Shown here: piece by piece, positions 1 to 18,119 of the stretch
How the letters are laid out: the number at the start of each line of letters is the position of its first letter
Numbering within the stretch: the first letter of the stretch is position 1
Virus record (IMG/VR): IMGVR_UViG_3300043786_001842
Reading direction: 5' to 3' (one strand)
Source: an uncultured virus (IMG/VR IMGVR_UViG_3300043786_001842)
Taxonomy: Duplodnaviria > Heunggongvirae > Uroviricota > Caudoviricetes
DNA length: 20,000 bases
The notes under the pieces: generated by a model
What the model was told of the DNA's origin: nothing
Seen by the model: only the letters and a program-made list of their open reading frames with translations
Database searches by the model: none
Program-made: the position numbers and the translations under genes

Positions 1-9
1 AGCGTTGAT

Positions 10-699
10 CTAACGGAAGTACTCGTCTGAGACTTTCTTCCAAATTCTCTTCGATGCAATCGTAGACACGTATCCTCGACGAATCCCTAGTTCTCGTTCG
101 ATTACTGGAGGAGTTTCACCAGCAGCCAATTTCAAACAGATCTGTCGGATCAAGGATTCGGGATATTTGCACATTGGGTGCTCAGTTCCAGAACGACGTC
201 GCACAAGACCATTTGCGACTGCATGCTGGACATTCTCTTTACCTGATACCCATTCGAGATTGCTTGCCGCATTGTTTCTTTTCGAACCGTCAATGTGATT
301 GACCTGGCTCTGTCCAAAACGCGGCTTAGGGAGGAAAGCTTCAACGACTAAGCGGTGCACGCGTTCACTTTTGCGTTCACCACTTTTGTCGTACATCTTC
401 ACCTGCATGTAACCCCGTCCATTGATAGTCTGAATCAGGAGGGTATCACCATTAGCTACTCGCCCGAGATTGCTGACACGGTAGCCGGGATGGTGCACAC
501 AAGGTTTCCAGTTCTCTCCAGGTAGCGTCTCAACTTGAGATTTGCGTATTGGCCGTCTCAGGTTGAGACGCTGGAGGAGACCAGTTACAGCACCGACAGT
601 TGTTTCCAACTCGTGTGCCATTTCTGGATTGGACTTGTGCAAGTAGTTTTCGGTGAGGAATGCTACATGCTGCGGATTTGATATGCTGAGTGACTTCAT
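10..699 (-). CDS. Intron-encoded NUMOD4-HNH homing endonuclease
   Basis: NUMOD4-like ENWKPCVHHPGYRVSNLGRV; HNH core VHRLVVEAF...VNHIDGSKRNNAASNLEWVSGKENVQHA; HTH-like C-terminus; GAGG RBS upstream of the ATG. Confidence 0.93.
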   Translation of the reverse strand: MKSLSISNPQHVAFLTENYLHKSNPEMAHELETTVGAVTGLLQRLNLRRPIRKSQVETLPGENWKPCVHHPGYRVSNLGRVANGDTLLIQTINGRGYMQVKMYDKSGERKSERVHRLVVEAFLPKPRFGQSQVNHIDGSKRNNAASNLEWVSGKENVQHAVANGLVRRRSGTEHPMCKYPESLIRQICLKLAAGETPPVIERELGIRRGYVSTIASKRIWKKVSDEYFR

Positions 700-713
700 T
701 TGAAAACCTCTGA

Positions 714-742
714 ATTATACCATATTCATTGGTTCTCAACAA
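714..742 (-). promoter_or_regulatory. Sigma70-like promoter for the HNH gene inside intron 3
   Basis: TTGTTG (742-737), 17 nt spacer, TATAAT (719-714) with an extended -10 TG, directly upstream of the RBS and ATG. Confidence 0.6.
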
Positions 743-894
743 TTAGACCCTTCGTTGCCGGTTGTCTCTACCTTCGCATTTTCAGGGGTCGCCGCTCCGT
801 CACCGGGCGGTATCCTAGCGATAGTCTAGCAAGACTTTCTGGCAGTTAGAGAAGTTCACAGCGCGGATCGCTCCGCGCAGCCGCTAATTTGCTA

Positions 895-970
895 ACGGTT
901 TTCCCTTGAGGCTGAAGATAGCCTGGGTTTTGCGATCACGCCCAAGGGCACAGCTGGAACCTGCACTATC
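895..970 (-). CDS. gyrB: Type II topoisomerase subunit B, exon 3 (76 nt, not in the ORF track)
   Basis: Translates DSAGSSCALGRDRKTQAIFSLKGKP, matching the GyrB TOPRIM segment DSAGGSAKQGRDR...QAILPLKGK; preceded by the intron-terminal G at 971. Confidence 0.92.
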
Positions 971-2198
971 CATTCATCTTTGACAGCCGGCGTTACTGAC
1001 TGTCGCCCGCATATTCGCGCGGGCCTCGCGGTCTCCCGCGAGATGAGACTATATCTTCGCCCCAGCGGGGCGTCTCCCGTTTCCCCGACACTCGTCGGGT
1101 ACGTCCTTTCGGACTAGTCGTTGAACCTTCGCCTGTTTTCTTACACGCGGGATTGCAGTCCCGCCCCAGCCTCACGGCGCCAGGTGGCCGGAGGGCTTCA
1201 GCCCTCGAAGTCCCCCTCGCTGTAGCCGAGGTAGGAAATGGCGTCATCTTTGCTGACGCGCACGGTGGCATTCAGAAGACAGTCGTGCTCCAGGATGACC
1301 GTCATGCCGGAGGTGCTGATGCGGTGGCTGGCTTCGATGCGGAATCGCGCCAGGGCGTCGTCGACGCCGTTGCGCTCGAACGTCGGAAACGACGCATTCT
1401 CGCTGTCGCCGAACTGGAAGTTCGTCTTCGGATGGCCGTAGTAGTTCAGGATGAGCCTGATCTTGTCCTCGGCGAGATACGGCGCATAGATTGCCTTGAT
1501 CTCCTTCACGGAGATGTGCTGGTTGCCCGGAGTGATTTCGCTGCGTCGGAACATCACCGACCGGCGCACCTGCTCGCGAAGCGCCTCTTCACGCTCGAGC
1601 GTCGCGACGAGTTCGCGAGCGATTTCCAGACGGGAGCGCGTGGCCGAGGAGGCCTGGCGCTCGCGGAGCTGGCGCTCGCACTCGATGAAGTACTTGCGAG
1701 CGGCGCGACCCCTCTCGTTGCGCTCCACCATGGCCAGTTCCTTGGCCATGTCGAGGCTGATGTGATAGTCGATGCGGTTCGATCCGCCGCCACGGTTTCC
1801 GACTGCGCTCCCGTTTTGGAGTGCAGTCGTAAAGTCTTGATTCTCAACGAATTCATACTTCTCGACCCGGTCCTTGATCCAGTTGGAGAAGTCCTTGCCA
1901 ACCTCCAGGAATGCGTGGAGCTCCCTGGCGTTCACCGTCGGGACCACTGCATTCCCGACCGGCTGCTCCGTCAGCTTCATAAGGATTTCGTCTTGTGTAT
2001 CCATATTGGTTCCTTCAAATTTCAGATAGAGGCCTCGCTGCAACGAGGCTGGTGGTGGTGTACAGGCGCTTGGCTGCTGATTTCCCAATCCCCACACTTT
2101 TCAAGCCGTCGCGCTCGCCCTTGCGGGCCACGCTGTGGCAGTGGGGCTCTCAGGGAGTTCCAGCAATTAGAGAGATTTTACGAGAGCAATGGTTACTT
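971..2198 (-). mobile_element. Group I intron 2 (IA2-like, 1228 nt) carrying an antirepressor-domain ORF
   Basis: Exon ends GAGGGU| and pairs with IGS GCUCUC (U.G at the junction). P AATTGCTGGAAC 2168-2157, Q AAATCAGCAG 2083-2074, R GTTCAACGACTA 1126-1115, S AAGATATAGTC 1057-1047. P7.1 GTCC-GAAA-GGAC, P7.2 CCCGAC-GAGT-GTCGGG, terminal G at 971. Removal restores IVEG|DSAG in frame. Confidence 0.93.
1198..2004 (-). CDS. AntA/AntB antirepressor-domain protein (268 aa) encoded inside intron 2
   Basis: VNARELHAFLEVGKDFSNWIKDRVEKYEFVENQDF...DYHISLDMAKELAMVERNERGRAARKYFIECERQL is the typical AntA/AntB signature, followed by a short coiled coil and an unrecognised C-terminal domain. Start moved to ATG 2004 (GAAGGA RBS) because the longer ORF overlaps the ribozyme core. 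Confidence 0.9.
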   Translation of the reverse strand: MDTQDEILMKLTEQPVGNAVVPTVNARELHAFLEVGKDFSNWIKDRVEKYEFVENQDFTTALQNGSAVGNRGGGSNRIDYHISLDMAKELAMVERNERGRAARKYFIECERQLRERQASSATRSRLEIARELVATLEREEALREQVRRSVMFRRSEITPGNQHISVKEIKAIYAPYLAEDKIRLILNYYGHPKTNFQFGDSENASFPTFERNGVDDALARFRIEASHRISTSGMTVILEHDCLLNATVRVSKDDAISYLGYSEGDFEG

Positions 2199-2462
2199 AC
2201 CCTCGACGATGAACAGCTCGGTCTCCGCGGAGTCCTTCGACGAGCAGTCCTTCAGCTTGCCGAAGTTCTTCATTCCGAAGACGCCGGCGTCCTGCTTTCG
2301 GACCTGCTCGCGGGCCTTCGCGGCCGCGACGCGGGCCTTCGCGGCGTTGATCGCACGCTGACAGAGAAGGCGCGCCTCCTTCGGATTCTCCTCCAGCCAC
2401 CGCTGCAGGCCGGCGTTGACGGTCTTCTGGACAGCACCCTGGGCGTCACTGTTTGACAATGT
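2199..2462 (-). CDS. gyrB: Type II topoisomerase subunit B, exon 2 (88 codons)
   Basis: TLSNSDAQ...WLEENPKEA...AAKARVAAAKARE...GKLKDCSSKDSAETELFIVEG matches the end of the GyrB/ParE transducer and the start of TOPRIM. Confidence 0.95.
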
Positions 2463-3753
2463 CCTATATTTAAACGGCGTTCGTTACTCACCGTCTAGTT
2501 CCAATCTACCAAATTCCCGTTCGGTCACAGACCATGGATCCATTCCACGCACTAGCACATCTTCGAGTACTTGAACCACATCGGAAACGTATGGGATCCG
2601 CAAGAGAGGATAGCCGCGCTCTTGACAGAAATTAGTCTTGAATGCGTCCCTTTCCTGCATCACCAACATGTCTACCTTCCAATTTGGCCCGACTATAAAA
2701 TGCTGGCGACCATCGTACTCGATGAGCAGCGATTCGTCAACGAGAAAATCGAACTTGAGTTGACGCTGAAAAACACATCCTTCCAATGCCACTTCACGTT
2801 CATACGACCGGCCATGGCTAGTCAACCAATTTTCGATAGCCTGCACTGCCTTAGATGTCTTATTCCTTAAAGCACAATACGGACATCTACAACCGCCTAG
2901 AAACAGGCCGGACGACATGTCAAATGTCTGCCCACATGTCTCATGTCTAAATTCGACCTTCTCCCTGAAATTGCGGTACTTGCCGAGAACTGAGTACTCA
3001 GTTCCGACCAGCACCGCAATTTCCCGAACGAAGTCGTCATGAGTGCGACGGTGTTTTTTGTTGCACTGCGGGCAGCCGGCATGTGGCTTACGGACACGAC
3101 GTAGCATCGTATTGGGCGAAATTTCCCATTCGTATCCACACTGATGGCGTGTCAGAATGGGCGTCATCGTGTTAACGTATTTTCCAAGCACGAGATATTC
3201 GCCAGGGAAGTGCTTCTCCAGCTCGGCCACGTACTCAGAGTGTGTCTTCCTGACCGCGTTCCCGCACTTCGGGCAGCGATCGCCACATACGAATCGACTC
3301 GGACGCATCTCGAAGATGTATCCGCATTCGATGTGCTCGAATCGGATCTTGTGATGGGTGGTTTGGTAGAGGTCGAGCAATCGATACTGATTCTGCCCGC
3401 GATCGCGGACTATCTCAGCAAATTGCTCGTGGGTCATCTTTGCCGGCATCCTATTCTCCTATTTAGAGGACAATCAAATGTTAGCGACGACAACCGGATT
3501 GGAACTACTTACAGTTTCCTGTAAGAGAAGACTATATCTTCACGGTATGACCGTGCTTCCCATTTCCGCACCACTCGGCGCGTACTCCCTCGCGGGATAG
3601 TCGTTGAACGTTCACCCTCGCGGGTGCTTCGCTGCTGATCGCCCAATCTCTCAACTTGTCGAACCGTCGCGCTCGCCGTTCCCGGCCACGCTGTGGTATG
3701 AGAGCTCTAAGGGGTTTCCAGCAATTAGAGAAGTTTTACAAGAGCAGTCATCT
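2463..3753 (-). mobile_element. Group I intron 1 (IA2-like, 1291 nt) with endonuclease ORF in the P9 region
   Basis: Exon ends AAGGGU| and pairs with IGS GCUCUU. P AATTGCTGGAAA 3726-3715, Q GATCAGCAG 3640-3632, R GTTCAACGACTA 3609-3598, S AAGATATAGTC 3540-3530. P9 CTTACAG-GAAA-CTGTAAG; terminal G at 2463. Splicing gives FKGQSKG|TLSNSDA, aligning with the GyrB-type FEGQTKTKLGNSE. Confidence 0.93.
2484..3449 (-). CDS. Intron-encoded endonuclease: three zinc-ribbon repeats plus a Vsr/DUF559-like (PD-(D/E)xK-fold) nuclease domain
   Basis: Three repeats of H..CG..F/W....CPxC, then YEREV...KFDF...LLIEYDGRQHF...RDAFKTNFC...GYPLLRIPY; AGGAG RBS. Confidence 0.87.
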   Translation of the reverse strand: MPAKMTHEQFAEIVRDRGQNQYRLLDLYQTTHHKIRFEHIECGYIFEMRPSRFVCGDRCPKCGNAVRKTHSEYVAELEKHFPGEYLVLGKYVNTMTPILTRHQCGYEWEISPNTMLRRVRKPHAGCPQCNKKHRRTHDDFVREIAVLVGTEYSVLGKYRNFREKVEFRHETCGQTFDMSSGLFLGGCRCPYCALRNKTSKAVQAIENWLTSHGRSYEREVALEGCVFQRQLKFDFLVDESLLIEYDGRQHFIVGPNWKVDMLVMQERDAFKTNFCQERGYPLLRIPYVSDVVQVLEDVLVRGMDPWSVTEREFGRLELDGE

Positions 3754-4800
3754 ACCCTTCGATTGTCCTTTGAAGACTGGAGAACGATGTCTGATCGCGA
3801 CGAGGACCATAACGCCCTCGAAGCAATCTGGAGCCTCGATCTTGAGGTCTCTTTCTTTCACCGAAACGAGATTGTTATTCTCGATGTATCCGCGCACGAT
3901 CTGCGGCAGAGCCATGCGAACGCCCTGAACATGTGTGCCGCCTTCAGGCTGACGAACGCAGTTGCAAAAGCCTTGGATGCTGTCGCGGCCATATCCGCTA
4001 GTCCAGGCTACCGCAATGGCGACCCGGATTTCGCTGTCCTCGGGATTTTCGAAGTGGGCGACTTTCTTGAAGAGCACCTTGTCCCCGGCCAGCGACTCGA
4101 TAAAGGCATCAAGACCTCGCTCTTCGCGAAAGACTTCGTCTTTCGTGCCGGTTTCGTCCTTCCACTTCAAACGCAGTGTAAGGCCGGGATTCAGATAGGC
4201 CCGCTCGCGCAGCATGCGCTGGAGGGCTTCCCGACCGGGAATCATGGAACTCGCATCCTTGAACACGATCGGGTCGAGGATAAACTCAATCTTGGTGCCG
4301 GTACGTTTCTTGTTTCTCTCCAGCACTGCGCTCTCGATGTCCCGGATGCGTTTGGCACTTCTGAACTCGATGGTGTGCTCTTGACCGTCGCGCCACACGG
4401 TCGCCTTCAGATACGTCGAGGTCGCCGTGACCGCCTTCAAGCCGGTTCCGTGTAGACCGCCGGAAATTCCATAGGACGTACCGAACTTTCCGCCTGAGTG
4501 AGCTTTGGTAAGAACGACTTCGAGGGTGGACAGACCGGGGTGCTTGGAGTGCTCCTCGACCGGGATGCCACGCGCCTCATCTTCGACACTGATGAGATGG
4601 GATGCAGCGTCAACGGAAATGGTGATGGTGCTTCCATGCCCATTCATGTGCTCGTCAATCGCATTATCGATCACCTCGCGCACCGCTACTGCCACCCCGT
4701 CATCATCCGCGCTTCCAAGGTACATTCCAACACGAGCCCTGATAGCATCGAGGATCTCCAAAGTGTCGATGTCTGCTGCAGTGTATGTCTTTTTCGACAT
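3754..4800 (-). CDS. gyrB: Type II topoisomerase subunit B (GyrB/ParE-like), exon 1: GHKL ATPase and transducer (349 codons)
   Basis: YTAADIDTLE..DAIRARVGMYLGS, EVIDNAIDE, DEARGIP, HSGGKFG..YGISGGLHGTG, GTKIEF, EGGTHVQG, PVFKGQSK; AAGGAG RBS. Gyrase versus topo IV-like cannot be resolved by eye. Confidence 0.96.
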
Positions 4801-15345: not shown

Positions 15346-15465
15346 ATGCTCCGGCCGACCGCACAACCTGTTGTTCCAGCACCTGAAGGCGGAAGAAAAA
15401 CCGTGCTCCAGATCGAGATAGCGCCGCCGCGCAATCCTTCGCCCGTCGCCGGGGGCCGGCGATGA
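15346..15465 (+). CDS. Possible 39-aa ORF
   Basis: Fills the gap and overlaps the helicase start by ATGA; no clear RBS. Confidence 0.25.
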   Translation: MLRPTAQPVVPAPEGGRKTVLQIEIAPPRNPSPVAGGRR

Positions 15466-18119
15466 TCGACGACTCCATGCTGACCGAGGAGCAGAAGCGC
15501 GCCATCGACGCCTTCGCGGCCTGGTGGAAGCACGGCTCCGAGCACGGCTTCGGCGAGCGGCCGATCTGGAAGCTGACCGGGCCGGCCGGCTCCGGCAAGT
15601 CGACGATCGCCAACTTTGCGGTCGAGGCCGCCGGCATCCCGTCCGTCCTCCCGCTGGCGTTCACCGGAAAGGCCGCGCTCGTGATGAAGAGCAAGGGCCT
15701 GAGTGAGGCGAGGACCATCCACAGCGCGATCTACCTCCCGGACGAAGAGGTGAACGACACGATCCGGAAGCTCCGGAGCGAGATGATGGACGTGCGCATG
15801 AAATCGGCGCGCCGCCTCGATGAGACTCCGGAGGACTACGCCCTACGGAAGACCGCGGACGAGGCGAGGATCGCCGAGATCAAGGGTCAGATCACCAAGA
15901 TAGAGCTCAGCACGAGCGACCGCATGAATTGGATCCTGAACCCCAGCGGGCCGATGAGCCTGGCATCCCTCATCCTCGTCGACGAGGCGTCCATGGTCGG
16001 TGGGCGCGTGCAGCGGGATCTGGAGAGTTTCGGCGTGCCGATCCTCTATTTGGGCGACTCCTTCCAATTGCCCCCCATTGAAGATAAGAGCGACAAGGAG
16101 TTCACGTCCGCTCTGTTCGACCGCGATGGCCGGCCCCTCACGCCGGACTTCGGGCTCACGCAGATCCACCGGCAGGCAGAGGGGTCGGCCATCATCCGGC
16201 ACTCCAGGGACATCCGTCTCGGCCTGCCGGAGCAGCACTTCCGCGGCAAGATGGTCGGGGATCTCGGTGACATGGTGCTGCGCGTCGAGTCCTCCAAGTT
16301 GCGGATCGAGCACTACGCGGCCGCGCAGCAGGTCATCTGCGGCAAGAACGACACCCGCCACGCCATCAACGCCGCGATCCGGGAGTTCCTCGGGCGCTCC
16401 GGGCCGCTGCCCGAGGACGGAGACCGCGTCATCATCCTGCGCAACAACAAGGAGCACGGCCTGGTGAACGGCATGATGGGGGTCGCGCTCTCCGGCGCGC
16501 GATCGTACAACAGCAAGAGCGGGACGATCCGCTTCGACTGTGAGCTGGAGGACGGGCGGCAGATGGTCCTGGAGGCCCTCGAGCCGTACTTCTCGGCCCC
16601 TCAGAATCAGGACGCGCTCTACGAAAAGTGCCCCGCCTGGTCTCGGAGAGACAACCAGCACGTGGATTACGCCTGGGCTATCACGGCGCACAAATGCATG
16701 ACGCTGGACACGATCGTCCACACGGATCGCGGGATCATGCGGATCTCGGAGTTGGACAATGGCGCCGCCAGAGGGGAGTTCAAACCGCTGGAGGGTGTTA
16801 GCGTCGAGACCGGGACCGGATTGGAGAATGCGGCGTCATTCTACAACGAGGGCCCAGCCCCGGTGCTCCGCGTGGAGACCGCCCGCGGGTACTCCGTACG
16901 CGTCACTCCTGGACATCGCATATTCGTCCTAGGGGAGAACGCGGAGCTTGTCGAGCGTCTGGCGGCAGACGTCCGCCCGGGCGACTACGTGCCCATACCT
17001 CGCAGAACCAACGGCTTCGGCCCGGACCGCCAACCGCTGGGCTATGTGGACGAGGGCGGCTACCACAACGAGTCGTACTACACCTTGCCAGAGTTCATGT
17101 CTCCGTACCTGGCTGAGTTCATCGGCATGGTGGTCGCCGACGGCAGCGTCACTGGCAGAAAAGTGAATTACTGCAAGCACGAGCGCGAGCCGGTGGCTCG
17201 ATTTGCCGAGTTGGCAAACGTGCTCTTCGGCTACCGGGCTAAGGTCGTGGACCGGTCCAAGAACGGGTATGCCATCAACGACCACATGTGCGAGATCCAC
17301 TCGACCTTGATCCACCGCTTCATGGCCTCATTCGAAGGGGTGCTGCCGGACGCCAAGGACGTCCCGAAAGCCATCCTGCGGAGCAACAAGGAGTGTCAGA
17401 GAATGTTCTTGAAGGGCGTTGCGGAGGACGGCACGGTCAACGTCAGGGGCGGGCGCTTTGACCACATCGAGATCGAGATGAAGCGTGAGTCCATGTTTGA
17501 GAACGTCCGTGCAATGCTTCAGAACTTCGGGGTCCTCTGCTCGAGGTATGTGGACCAGAAAGGCTACTTCCGCCTGATGATCTACCGCGAGTCCGCCGTA
17601 CAGTTTCTGCGAGAGATCGGCTTCCATTCTCCGTCCAAGCAGGCCAATCTGCTGACGGCGGAAATCGGTGACCACTCCTACTCGCTGGAGGCATTCCCAC
17701 ACCTCGGTGGGGCGGTGAAGAAGCTGCTGAAGGAGAATCGTCTCAACAGGCAGAAGGTCATCCGACCCCCAACTCTGGGAGACTCGGCCACTTTCAACAT
17801 CGTGTCCAGAGTCATCGACCAGCTGCCGGAGTTGGCCGGACAGCCACTGTACGACAATCTTGCTGACATTCTTGCAAACTACACCTTCGACAAGATCGTA
17901 GCGGTCGAAGCCGATGGAGTGGAGAGCACGGTCTGCTTGGAAGTGCCCTCTACGGGCGCGTTCGTCCAGAACGGCATCCTTGCCGGGAATTCACAAGGGT
18001 CCCAATACACATCGGGCATTGTGCTATATGAGCCGCTGGGGCGAACGGATGAGCTCCGGCGGCGCTGGTACTACACCGCTATCACGCGGTTCGAGCAGAA
18101 CGTCATCGTGGCCTGCTGA
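15462..18119 (+). CDS. RecD/Dda-like SF1B helicase precursor with an intein (453 aa after splicing)
   Basis: GPAGSGKST, LAFTGKAA, RTIHS, LVDEASMV, GDSFQLPP, LTQIHRQ, AITAHK|SQGSQY, YTAITR. Confidence 0.93.
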   Translation: MIDDSMLTEEQKRAIDAFAAWWKHGSEHGFGERPIWKLTGPAGSGKSTIANFAVEAAGIPSVLPLAFTGKAALVMKSKGLSEARTIHSAIYLPDEEVNDTIRKLRSEMMDVRMKSARRLDETPEDYALRKTADEARIAEIKGQITKIELSTSDRMNWILNPSGPMSLASLILVDEASMVGGRVQRDLESFGVPILYLGDSFQLPPIEDKSDKEFTSALFDRDGRPLTPDFGLTQIHRQAEGSAIIRHSRDIRLGLPEQHFRGKMVGDLGDMVLRVESSKLRIEHYAAAQQVICGKNDTRHAINAAIREFLGRSGPLPEDGDRVIILRNNKEHGLVNGMMGVALSGARSYNSKSGTIRFDCELEDGRQMVLEALEPYFSAPQNQDALYEKCPAWSRRDNQHVDYAWAITAHKCMTLDTIVHTDRGIMRISELDNGAARGEFKPLEGVSVETGTGLENAASFYNEGPAPVLRVETARGYSVRVTPGHRIFVLGENAELVERLAADVRPGDYVPIPRRTNGFGPDRQPLGYVDEGGYHNESYYTLPEFMSPYLAEFIGMVVADGSVTGRKVNYCKHEREPVARFAELANVLFGYRAKVVDRSKNGYAINDHMCEIHSTLIHRFMASFEGVLPDAKDVPKAILRSNKECQRMFLKGVAEDGTVNVRGGRFDHIEIEMKRESMFENVRAMLQNFGVLCSRYVDQKGYFRLMIYRESAVQFLREIGFHSPSKQANLLTAEIGDHSYSLEAFPHLGGAVKKLLKENRLNRQKVIRPPTLGDSATFNIVSRVIDQLPELAGQPLYDNLADILANYTFDKIVAVEADGVESTVCLEVPSTGAFVQNGILAGNSQGSQYTSGIVLYEPLGRTDELRRRWYYTAITRFEQNVIVAC
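16695..17990 (+). mobile_element. Intein with LAGLIDADG endonuclease (432 aa)
   Basis: Begins CMTLDT, block B VTPGHRIF, LAGLIDADG-like IGMVVADGS and FLKGVAEDGT, ends TVCLEVPSTGAFVQNGILAGN before Ser+1; excision restores TAHKSQG. Confidence 0.95.

Follow-up and report, generated by a model that had tools for sequence, protein, structure and literature searches.

How a phage could make an intact type II topoisomerase from a gene that lies in pieces, each ending inside a conserved motif, is the question raised by the left 4.8 kb of a 20,000-nucleotide (nt) stretch of DNA, hereafter the window, from the uncultured virus IMGVR_UViG_3300043786_001842 (Caudoviricetes). A first-pass annotation made from the letters alone had proposed a phage topoisomerase B gene interrupted by at least three group I introns, each placed in a conserved motif and each carrying a different open reading frame (ORF), and this proposal was borne out by Pfam, PHROG and Rfam matches and by pairing tests. 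With high confidence, this region encodes the N-terminal part of a GyrB/ParE-like type IIA topoisomerase B subunit in three exons, the first of a gene cut by three group I introns in conserved motifs, with splicing predicted from the sequence.

The exon/intron boundaries and the restored reading frame can be read directly in the window. Exon 1 begins with an ATG preceded by AAGGAG on the minus strand, and its frame meets a stop two codons past ...GQSKG, in the QxK-type loop. The coding sequence resumes as TLSNSDAQ... in exon 2 and as DSAG... in exon 3 (Table 1). The three exons joined by script give a frame of 462 residues with no stops, in which the joins restore GQSKG/TLSN and VEG/DSAG and the third break falls at KGKP/L. 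The exon coordinates, codon counts and motif joins of the first-pass annotation were all found to be correct. Its statement that the short third exon escapes ORF callers also holds, since this exon has no start codon of its own and is absent from the ORF list.

Table 1. Exons, group I introns and intron-borne ORFs in the left part of the window.
Feature	Coordinates	Strand	Length	Description
Exon 1	4800-3754	minus	1047 nt, 349 codons	3' end ...AAG GGU; GHKL ATPase and most of the transducer domain
Intron 1	3753-2463	minus	1291 nt	Group I; core P1-P9 at 3753-3508, then a 3' extension with the ORF; ends ...AUAGG, last G at 2463
Intron-1 ORF	3449-2484	minus	321 residues	After P9; three CxxC...CxxC zinc modules and a C-terminal nuclease-like domain (LIEYDGRQH...D..K)
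Exon 2	2462-2199	minus	264 nt, 88 codons	3' end ...GAG GGU; rest of the transducer domain, as far as the TOPRIM glutamate motif ...IVEG
Intron 2	2198-971	minus	1228 nt	Group I; 5' core 2198-2073, 3' core ~1135-1025, ORF within the P6 hairpin; ends ...GAAUG, last G at 971
Intron-2 ORF	2004-1198	minus	268 residues	In the P6 hairpin; ATG at 2004 with GAAGGA upstream; AntA N-terminal domain, ~50-residue helix, C-terminal alpha/beta domain
Exon 3	970-895	minus	76 nt, 25 codons and the first base of a Leu codon	3' end ...CCG U; TOPRIM DSAG...LKGKP
Intron 3, 5' part	894-1	minus		P1, P2 hairpin at 878-861, P-element-like CUUCUCUAACUGCCAG, P4' at 759-756, then the ORF
Intron-3 ORF	699-10	minus	229 residues	After P4' (P6 region); NUMOD4 and HNH, I-HmuI type

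The identity of the gene is given by its domains. The exon 1 product matches HATPase_c (1.5e-12) and DNA_gyraseB (1.3e-26) in Pfam and phrog_543, topoisomerase II large subunit (8e-59), and it scores up to 5e-83 against the gyrB/parE models of NCBIfam, below their full-length cut-offs because exon 1 is only part of the gene. The Pfam DNA_gyraseB profile runs from position 1 to 120 in exon 1 and from 122 to 172 in exon 2, an exact continuation, and a motif of the EGDSA type is split across exons 2 and 3. Among the parts of a type IIA B subunit, the GHKL and transducer domains lie in exons 1 and 2; a DxDxD-type motif and the DNA_gyraseB_C domain (2.1e-15) are found outside the window, in the continuation protein P0136 described below. 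The product of exon 1 is 64-73% identical to family members and that of exon 2 is 78-82% identical to relatives.

Uninterrupted genes provide the measure of the joins. All three of the close-relative loci that were fetched, two metagenome loci (L001 and L002) and a 259-kb viral contig (L081), carry the gene uninterrupted at all three sites over approximately 805 codons, with 64-67% identity in the exon 1 part, and read ...KGQAKTVLANSD..., ...LVEGDSAGG... and ...LKGKPLNSWE... across the sites; no Rfam match was found in these three topoisomerase loci. The comparison with intronless relatives proposed in the first-pass annotation could thus be made, and the joined frame is collinear with all three genes and gapless at the joins. 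Exons 1, 2 and 3 correspond to residues 1-321, 323-410 and 411-436 of the L001 protein and to residues 8-347, 348-433 and 434-459 of P0015, a bacterial GyrB-like protein. Since the three pieces fall on consecutive residues of intact homologues, the arrangement is far beyond chance. Synteny between the window and L081 is absent beyond the topoisomerase gene itself.

Relatives of the window's gene are interrupted at the same places. A protein search with exon 1 retrieved a tight family at 51-73% identity, and breakpoints were counted in 11 of its proteins, the window's own product (P0001) being left out. Six end at ...VEGK followed by a stop, at site 2, with the same read-through as intron 2; two pass site 2 and end just past KGKPL, at site 3; one ends two codons before site 3, after LRG; one ends at site 1; and one diverges into unrelated sequence. 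P0003 and P0009 break at the same codon as the intron 3 site, and P0136, P0121, P0125, P0128 and P0131 resume at (V)N(S/T)WE. Each site is therefore seen both empty and filled, the pattern expected of homing elements. In a relative represented by P0006 and P0135 (141050-bp contig), the break is ...SLRG/KPLNSWE..., two codons before site 3, which suggests a separate putative insertion site a few bases from KGKP/L. P0008 reads as topoisomerase to approximately residue 335 and then turns into OmpA-like sequence (PF00691), probably because its short contig, of 1876 bp, is a chimera.

The ribozyme core of intron 1 is complete. It matches the full Rfam model Intron_gpI (RF00028, gathering score 50 bits) with 79.2 bits (E value of 1.7e-19) at 3783-3508, and helices P1, P3 to P9, P7.1 and P7.2 were checked in it. 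This core is approximately 74% identical to introns of Pseudomonas phages, one of which is annotated as Intron_gpI. Intron 2 is 80% identical to intron 1 in the 3' halves and approximately 75% in the 5' halves, a likeness on which it is classed as a paralogue of intron 1. P7, P7.1, P7.2, P8 and P9 were written on an alignment of the 3' halves of the two introns, and 29 of 29 core pairs are standard in both, 11 of them compensatory; as a control, shifting the partners by 1 to 3 columns left 0 to 1 compensatory pairs and 29-48% pairing. Both introns likewise allow P1, P3 and P4 to be drawn, with compensatory change in P3 as well. The hairpins P7.1 and P7.2 lie between the 5' strand of P7 and P3' (3597-3586 and 3582-3567 in intron 1, 1114-1103 and 1099-1084 in intron 2) and differ between the introns by four compensatory pairs. 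The extra stems P7.1 and P7.2 are a mark of the phage-type subgroup IA.

The splice sites follow the rules of group I introns, as the first-pass annotation had described them. Each of the three exons ends in a U, which forms a U·G pair at the end of P1, the pairings being AAGGGU/GCUCUU in intron 1, GAGGGU/GCUCUC in intron 2 and CCGU/GCGG in intron 3, and the terminal G is present in introns 1 and 2. Intron 3 is represented in the window by its 5' half (P1, P2, the 5' strand of P3, P4/P4'), in which P2 has seven pairs and the conserved CUUCUCUAACUGCCAG and P4' are present, and 9 bases separate the stop of its ORF from the window end. In all five of the fetched proteins that resume at site 3 (those listed above), a Val (codon GUN) precedes the N, as would be expected if intron 3 ended in G and the Leu codon were completed by the two bases that open the next exon. 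The earlier expectation that the next exon would open with the rest of a Leu codon and then Asn agrees both with P0136 and with the intronless relatives.

The arrangement is also present in other samples. The window stretch was found in lake-water metagenomes, in which one contig of run X2 spans 1-1728, covering exon 3 and both flanking introns, and contigs of X2 (2023-3039) and X3 (1975-2715) span exon 2 and both flanking introns, with zero differences across either exon and its introns. X2 and X3 are runs other than the probable source of the window, and a contig of X2 reaches 349 bases past position 1. No intronless DNA allele was found in runs X2 or X3. Contigs from metatranscriptomes match the window exactly inside the intron-1 ORF (2715-2891 and 3218-3487) and inside the intron-3 ORF (160-310 and 390-552), where DNA carry-over is possible. 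Contig joints with sides of 19 to 33 bases were considered as splice junctions and rejected, since these sides lie in conserved ribozyme stretches and match other group I introns.

The remainder of the gene is illustrated by P0136, a protein of 494 residues retrieved with the last 345 residues of L001 as the query. It consists of 18 non-homologous, intron-derived read-through residues followed by NSWEADATK..., an intein and the C terminus, and resumes exactly where exon 3 of the window stops. The longest contig recorded for P0136 has the same length, 136127 bp, as that recorded for the exon 1 product P0001. Residues 78-220 of P0136 are an insert of 143 residues that separates DADIDG from SHIE within the TOPRIM DxD motif and leaves a clean gap against L001, L002 and L081. 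This insert runs CFVGDT...CTPDH...YVHN/S, with an N-terminal Cys and a C-terminal HN before Ser; its match to the Pfam domain Intein_splicing is weak (E value of 0.001). By these features it is a mini-intein, and its removal would leave a mature protein of 795 residues. P0128 and P0130 carry the same insertion, with precomputed intein domains. Judging from P0136, the window's gene very probably also carries a downstream intein and an exon 4. Three further proteins (P0129, P0132 and P0138) begin within the last 37 residues of the intein, as if the intein-coding region were interrupted or miscalled.

The three introns carry three different passengers, all of them intact ORFs, placed as the first-pass annotation had them: past P9 in intron 1, in the P6 hairpin in intron 2 and in the P6 region in intron 3. 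The stop of the intron-1 ORF lies 21 bases from the 3' splice site. Its product matches phrog_559 (2.1e-67), phrog_9084, "homing endonuclease" (3.8e-14), and phrog_7140, "intron encoded nuclease" (5.3e-8), and it is read as a putative homing endonuclease. DUF4379, DUF2726 and DUF559 all fall under their Pfam cut-offs; for the C-terminal 132 residues, DUF2726 reaches 20.5 bits (cut-off 24.7) and the Vsr-like DUF559 reaches 15.1 bits (cut-off 20.6). The family of this ORF has 18258 representatives at an E value of ≤0.001, with D234, E244, G247, H250, D268 and K271 invariant. A sequence search of the PDB returned no nuclease and nothing informative. The earlier description of this passenger as a zinc-ribbon/Vsr-like nuclease thus stands for the three zinc modules, and its Vsr-like part has sub-threshold matches only; a zinc-ribbon protein with a Vsr-like nuclease domain is plausible. 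A candidate class is the EDxHD family of I-Bth0305I (Vsr-like/PD-(D/E)xK homing endonucleases), which is defined by a Vsr-type nuclease fold with conserved acidic and His residues and by DNA-binding repeats in tandem at the N terminus.

The two domains that had been named for the passenger of intron 3 both score above their Pfam cut-offs, HNH_3 with 1.7e-8 and 34.4 bits (cut-off 24.8) and NUMOD4 with 1.3e-7 and 32.2 bits (cut-off 23.4), and the protein matches phrog_59 (5.5e-44). Residues 64-214 align with PDB entry 1U3E, "HNH homing endonuclease" (E value of 1.1e-10), which we take to be I-HmuI from the DNA polymerase intron of Bacillus phage SPO1. The two proteins share the NUMOD4 and HNH_3 architecture; the intron-3 ORF differs in having 60 extra N-terminal residues and another target gene, and its activity is a predicted one. 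No close relative of this ORF was found in viral contigs. With 48-50% G+C (at 1-500 and 2501-3000), the two nuclease genes look compositionally foreign in a window whose remaining sequence is mostly at 60-70%; the AntA gene, at 61-62%, does not.

The passenger of intron 2 is of another kind. The AntA domain reported for it was recovered with 2.7e-28 and 98.8 bits (cut-off 27), and the protein matches phrog_5817, "anti-repressor Ant" (1.3e-47); an alternative GTG start at 2097 is also open. Its C-terminal 169 residues gave no Pfam match at an E value of ≤5, and its last 120 residues are in no Pfam family. AlphaFold2 models have mean predicted local distance difference test (pLDDT) values of 81.7 and 83.4, and a Foldseek search of the PDB with the whole and the C-terminal models gave nothing at an E value of ≤0.001. 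The best VIA-align matches are weak winged-helix/excisionase/MerR-type DNA binders (Z scores of 6.3 to 5.1; at the top, a Z score of 6.3 and 2.0 Å over 53 residues), and the VIA-align comparison of the whole model is dominated by the long helix. In the protein Atlas, KilAC antirepressor clusters rank first at 0.86, and Rha, KilA-N and BRO appear by structure with a TM score of ~0.58; these are leads only. A LAGLIDADG-like fold was considered for this ORF from weak I-DmoI rows (E value of ~0.5, root mean square deviation of 8) and dropped when these were lost in the domain-only search. The search of viral contigs for loci of this ORF retrieved matches to the N-terminal domain alone, in ordinary temperate phages, and is uninformative on an association with introns. 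Full-length homologues are found at 37-53% identity. Two of them, P0242 (53%) and P0245 (50% identical), are full-length paralogues of the intron-2 ORF recorded on a 136127-bp contig that probably represents this phage; the phage thus probably has at least three copies of this AntA-type protein. X2 and X3 carry G>T at 1705 and C>T at 1712 within the AntA ORF, so a second near-identical strain circulates in other lake samples.

Taken together, a gene of this layout would be expressed as follows. The primary transcript would self-splice by the usual two transesterifications: in the first, a guanosine cofactor attacks the bond that follows the U of P1, and in the second, the freed exon end attacks after the terminal G. 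Exon 4 would follow intron 3, with the 143-residue mini-intein between DADIDG and SHIE, and the spliced mRNA would encode a protein of ~795 residues once the mini-intein had been removed by protein splicing. The intron-1 and intron-3 ORFs would act as homing endonucleases, cutting the intronless alleles of coinfecting related phages and thereby copying the introns into them. Homing of this kind would explain both why the insertion sites lie in the most conserved codons and why some relatives have a given site filled while others have it empty. Intron 2 carries an antirepressor-type DNA-binding protein in place of a recognizable nuclease. That this passenger is a working antirepressor-type protein (AntA and KilAC-like) rather than a degenerate endonuclease, travelling in a group I intron of an essential gene and either guiding another nuclease to the intronless site or giving a regulatory benefit that keeps the intron in place, is a speculative proposal and on balance an unlikely one. 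If it were true, the AntA passenger would represent a non-nuclease class of intron cargo, and together with the other two introns and the intein, the gene family, with its five or more insertion sites that are each found both filled and empty, would be a natural system for the study of competition between selfish elements.

Several observations weigh against a gene restored by self-splicing. The exons were not covered by contigs of two freshwater metatranscriptome runs, and no exon-exon joint, the mark of spliced RNA, was found in these contigs. Intron 2 scores 24.4 bits against RF00028 (E value of 0.0043, at 1191-1025), under the gathering score, a low value that results from the ORF within the P6 hairpin separating the core halves, and the covariation test compares two sequences and is therefore small. 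The 3' half of intron 3, including the R and S elements, its 3' splice site and exon 4 lie beyond position 1, and this intron has no Rfam match within the window, where its core is cut off at position 1. In the intron-2 ORF the searches detected no nuclease domain that would account for the mobility of this intron. The tie between P0136 and the window rests on the equal figure of 136127 bp, and P0241, the product of the window's intron-2 ORF, is recorded only on contigs up to 76181 bp; for this reason, and given the two differences of X2 and X3 in the AntA ORF, the 136127-bp contig may be a near-identical strain rather than the source of the window.

These points leave room for other explanations of a gene in pieces. 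Four selfish insertions are a heavy load for one gene, and an intron devoid of a nuclease, as intron 2 is, is typical of late stages of the homing cycle; both would suit a decaying copy in which some or all introns no longer splice and the topoisomerase is not made. Such decay is highly unlikely for a gene whose exons are all open, 64-82% identical to intact relatives and in possession of their catalytic motifs, whose three cargo ORFs are intact and whose layout recurs in at least two further lake metagenomes; moreover, compensatory change has preserved all of the tested pairs in the two ribozyme cores, a sign of selection on structure. The pieces could also be used without RNA splicing, if free-standing endonuclease genes had split the gene and separately translated fragments assembled as subunits. 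Split genes of this kind exist in phages (reviewed in PMC2988022), precedents being T4 genes 39 and 60 with mobA and nrdA of Aeh1 with mobE, and gene callers do give a separate 350-residue ORF and downstream ORFs in the window. Against this, the ORFs here are flanked by complete group I cores, neither exon 2 nor exon 3 opens with a ribosome-binding site or a start codon, exon 3 is just 25 codons long, and the breaks fall between adjacent residues of catalytic motifs at boundaries that follow the U·G and terminal-G rules, which makes translation in pieces exceedingly unlikely.

The probability that the introns are repeats misjoined into the gene by the assembler is practically negligible. The cores of introns 1 and 2 are 75-80% identical, short cross-matches between group I cores do give many false contig joints, and the junction of exon 1 and intron 1 is not bridged by the listed X2 and X3 pieces. 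The independent runs X2 and X3, however, show no differences across exons 2 and 3 with their flanking introns, the boundaries are base-exact relative to the reading frame, and relatives in other data sets break at the same codons. A topoisomerase gene interrupted by three group I introns thus remains the preferred reading of this locus.

The first-pass annotation had implied that a topoisomerase gene interrupted in this way lacks precedent, which does not hold. When phage records were searched by tblastn with the intact L001 protein, the gene of the Yersinia jumbo phage phiR1-37 was found in two pieces, g311 and g314, split by a group I intron (NC_016163.1, ~234911-236023; L241, 1701-2813) that scores 69.8 bits against RF00028. 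GGU precedes this intron and GAU follows its terminal G; an HNH ORF, g313, lies downstream of its core. The record has two topoisomerase coding sequences and no intron annotated, and a 30-residue ORF, g312, is called inside the ribozyme core. As in the window, a GyrB-like topoisomerase II gene is broken at ...LVEG/DSAGG..., the site of intron 2; the difference is that phiR1-37 has one intron and not three, that the proteins are approximately 30% identical and that the cargo at this site is an HNH protein instead of AntA.

Staphylococcus phage Twort carries three group I introns in one gene, orf142, and bnrdE of SPbeta contains both an intron and an intein. Both resemble the present gene in having several self-splicing elements in one essential phage gene and differ from it in the host gene. 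The combination of an intron and an intein in one gene is described as rare in the available part of one report, with the terminase of a Campylobacter phage and, as cited there, the ribonucleotide reductase of SPbeta as examples (PMC3322345). In the passages available from a preprint on Staphylococcus jumbo phages, "DNA gyrase B" is among the intron-disrupted genes, gyrase A of AR9 has two introns and gyrase A of MarsHill has an intein. These too are large phages with introns in gyrase B; they belong to different lineages, and the same passages of the preprint do not describe three introns with an intein in the B subunit. In Staphylococcus phages S6 and UFV_DC4, gyrB is annotated as an intact gene. 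Jug (jumbo gut) phages, according to the available part of their description, have a mean of 18.5 group I introns per genome, together with inteins, that split essential genes, and splicing was confirmed by metatranscriptomes for 37 of 76 introns; the split genes named there are terL, nrdD and DNA polymerase, whereas topoisomerase IV appears just as a conserved single-copy core gene (Sci Adv 2026, PMC12880540). The literature search retrieved no paper that directly describes a group I intron in the gyrB or topoisomerase gene of a phage, phiR1-37 included.

Intron-split gyrase and topoisomerase genes in large phages are therefore already known, the phage type IIA topoisomerase gene being a hot spot for self-splicing elements, and the current picture is unchanged. 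Particular to the window's gene are its three introns, each with a passenger of a different kind, of which one looks antirepressor-like rather than nuclease-like, and the intein as a probable fourth element. The locus shows how far selfish elements can colonize a single essential phage gene, at the QxK loop, the TOPRIM glutamate, KGKPLN and, by the probable intein, the DxD motif. Because gene callers overlook the 76-nt exon and report "gyrase B" as a fragment of 350 residues, phages of this kind appear to be without an intact topoisomerase. The three intronless loci, with 11 N-terminal and 12 C-terminal protein fragments, form a comparative set for homing-site choice and for the turnover of selfish elements in freshwater phages.

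Beyond the presence of the stretch in lake-water metagenomes, other searches with window sequences found nothing: a 41-base word from its left end had no exact match in viral, genome or metagenome contigs, megablast found nothing in phage and plasmid collections, and a single-protein scan of viral contigs gave no match. By PHROG matches, the other genes of the window include those for a virion protein, an SbcD-like nuclease, a DnaB-like helicase, a Dda-like helicase and a deoxynucleoside monophosphate phosphatase. The Dda/RecD-like helicase ORF (15462-18119, plus strand, 885 residues) contains an intein with a LAGLIDADG endonuclease domain at approximately residues 410-842 (Intein_splicing, 4.2e-12; LAGLIDADG_3, 4.8e-12), with helicase motifs on both sides.

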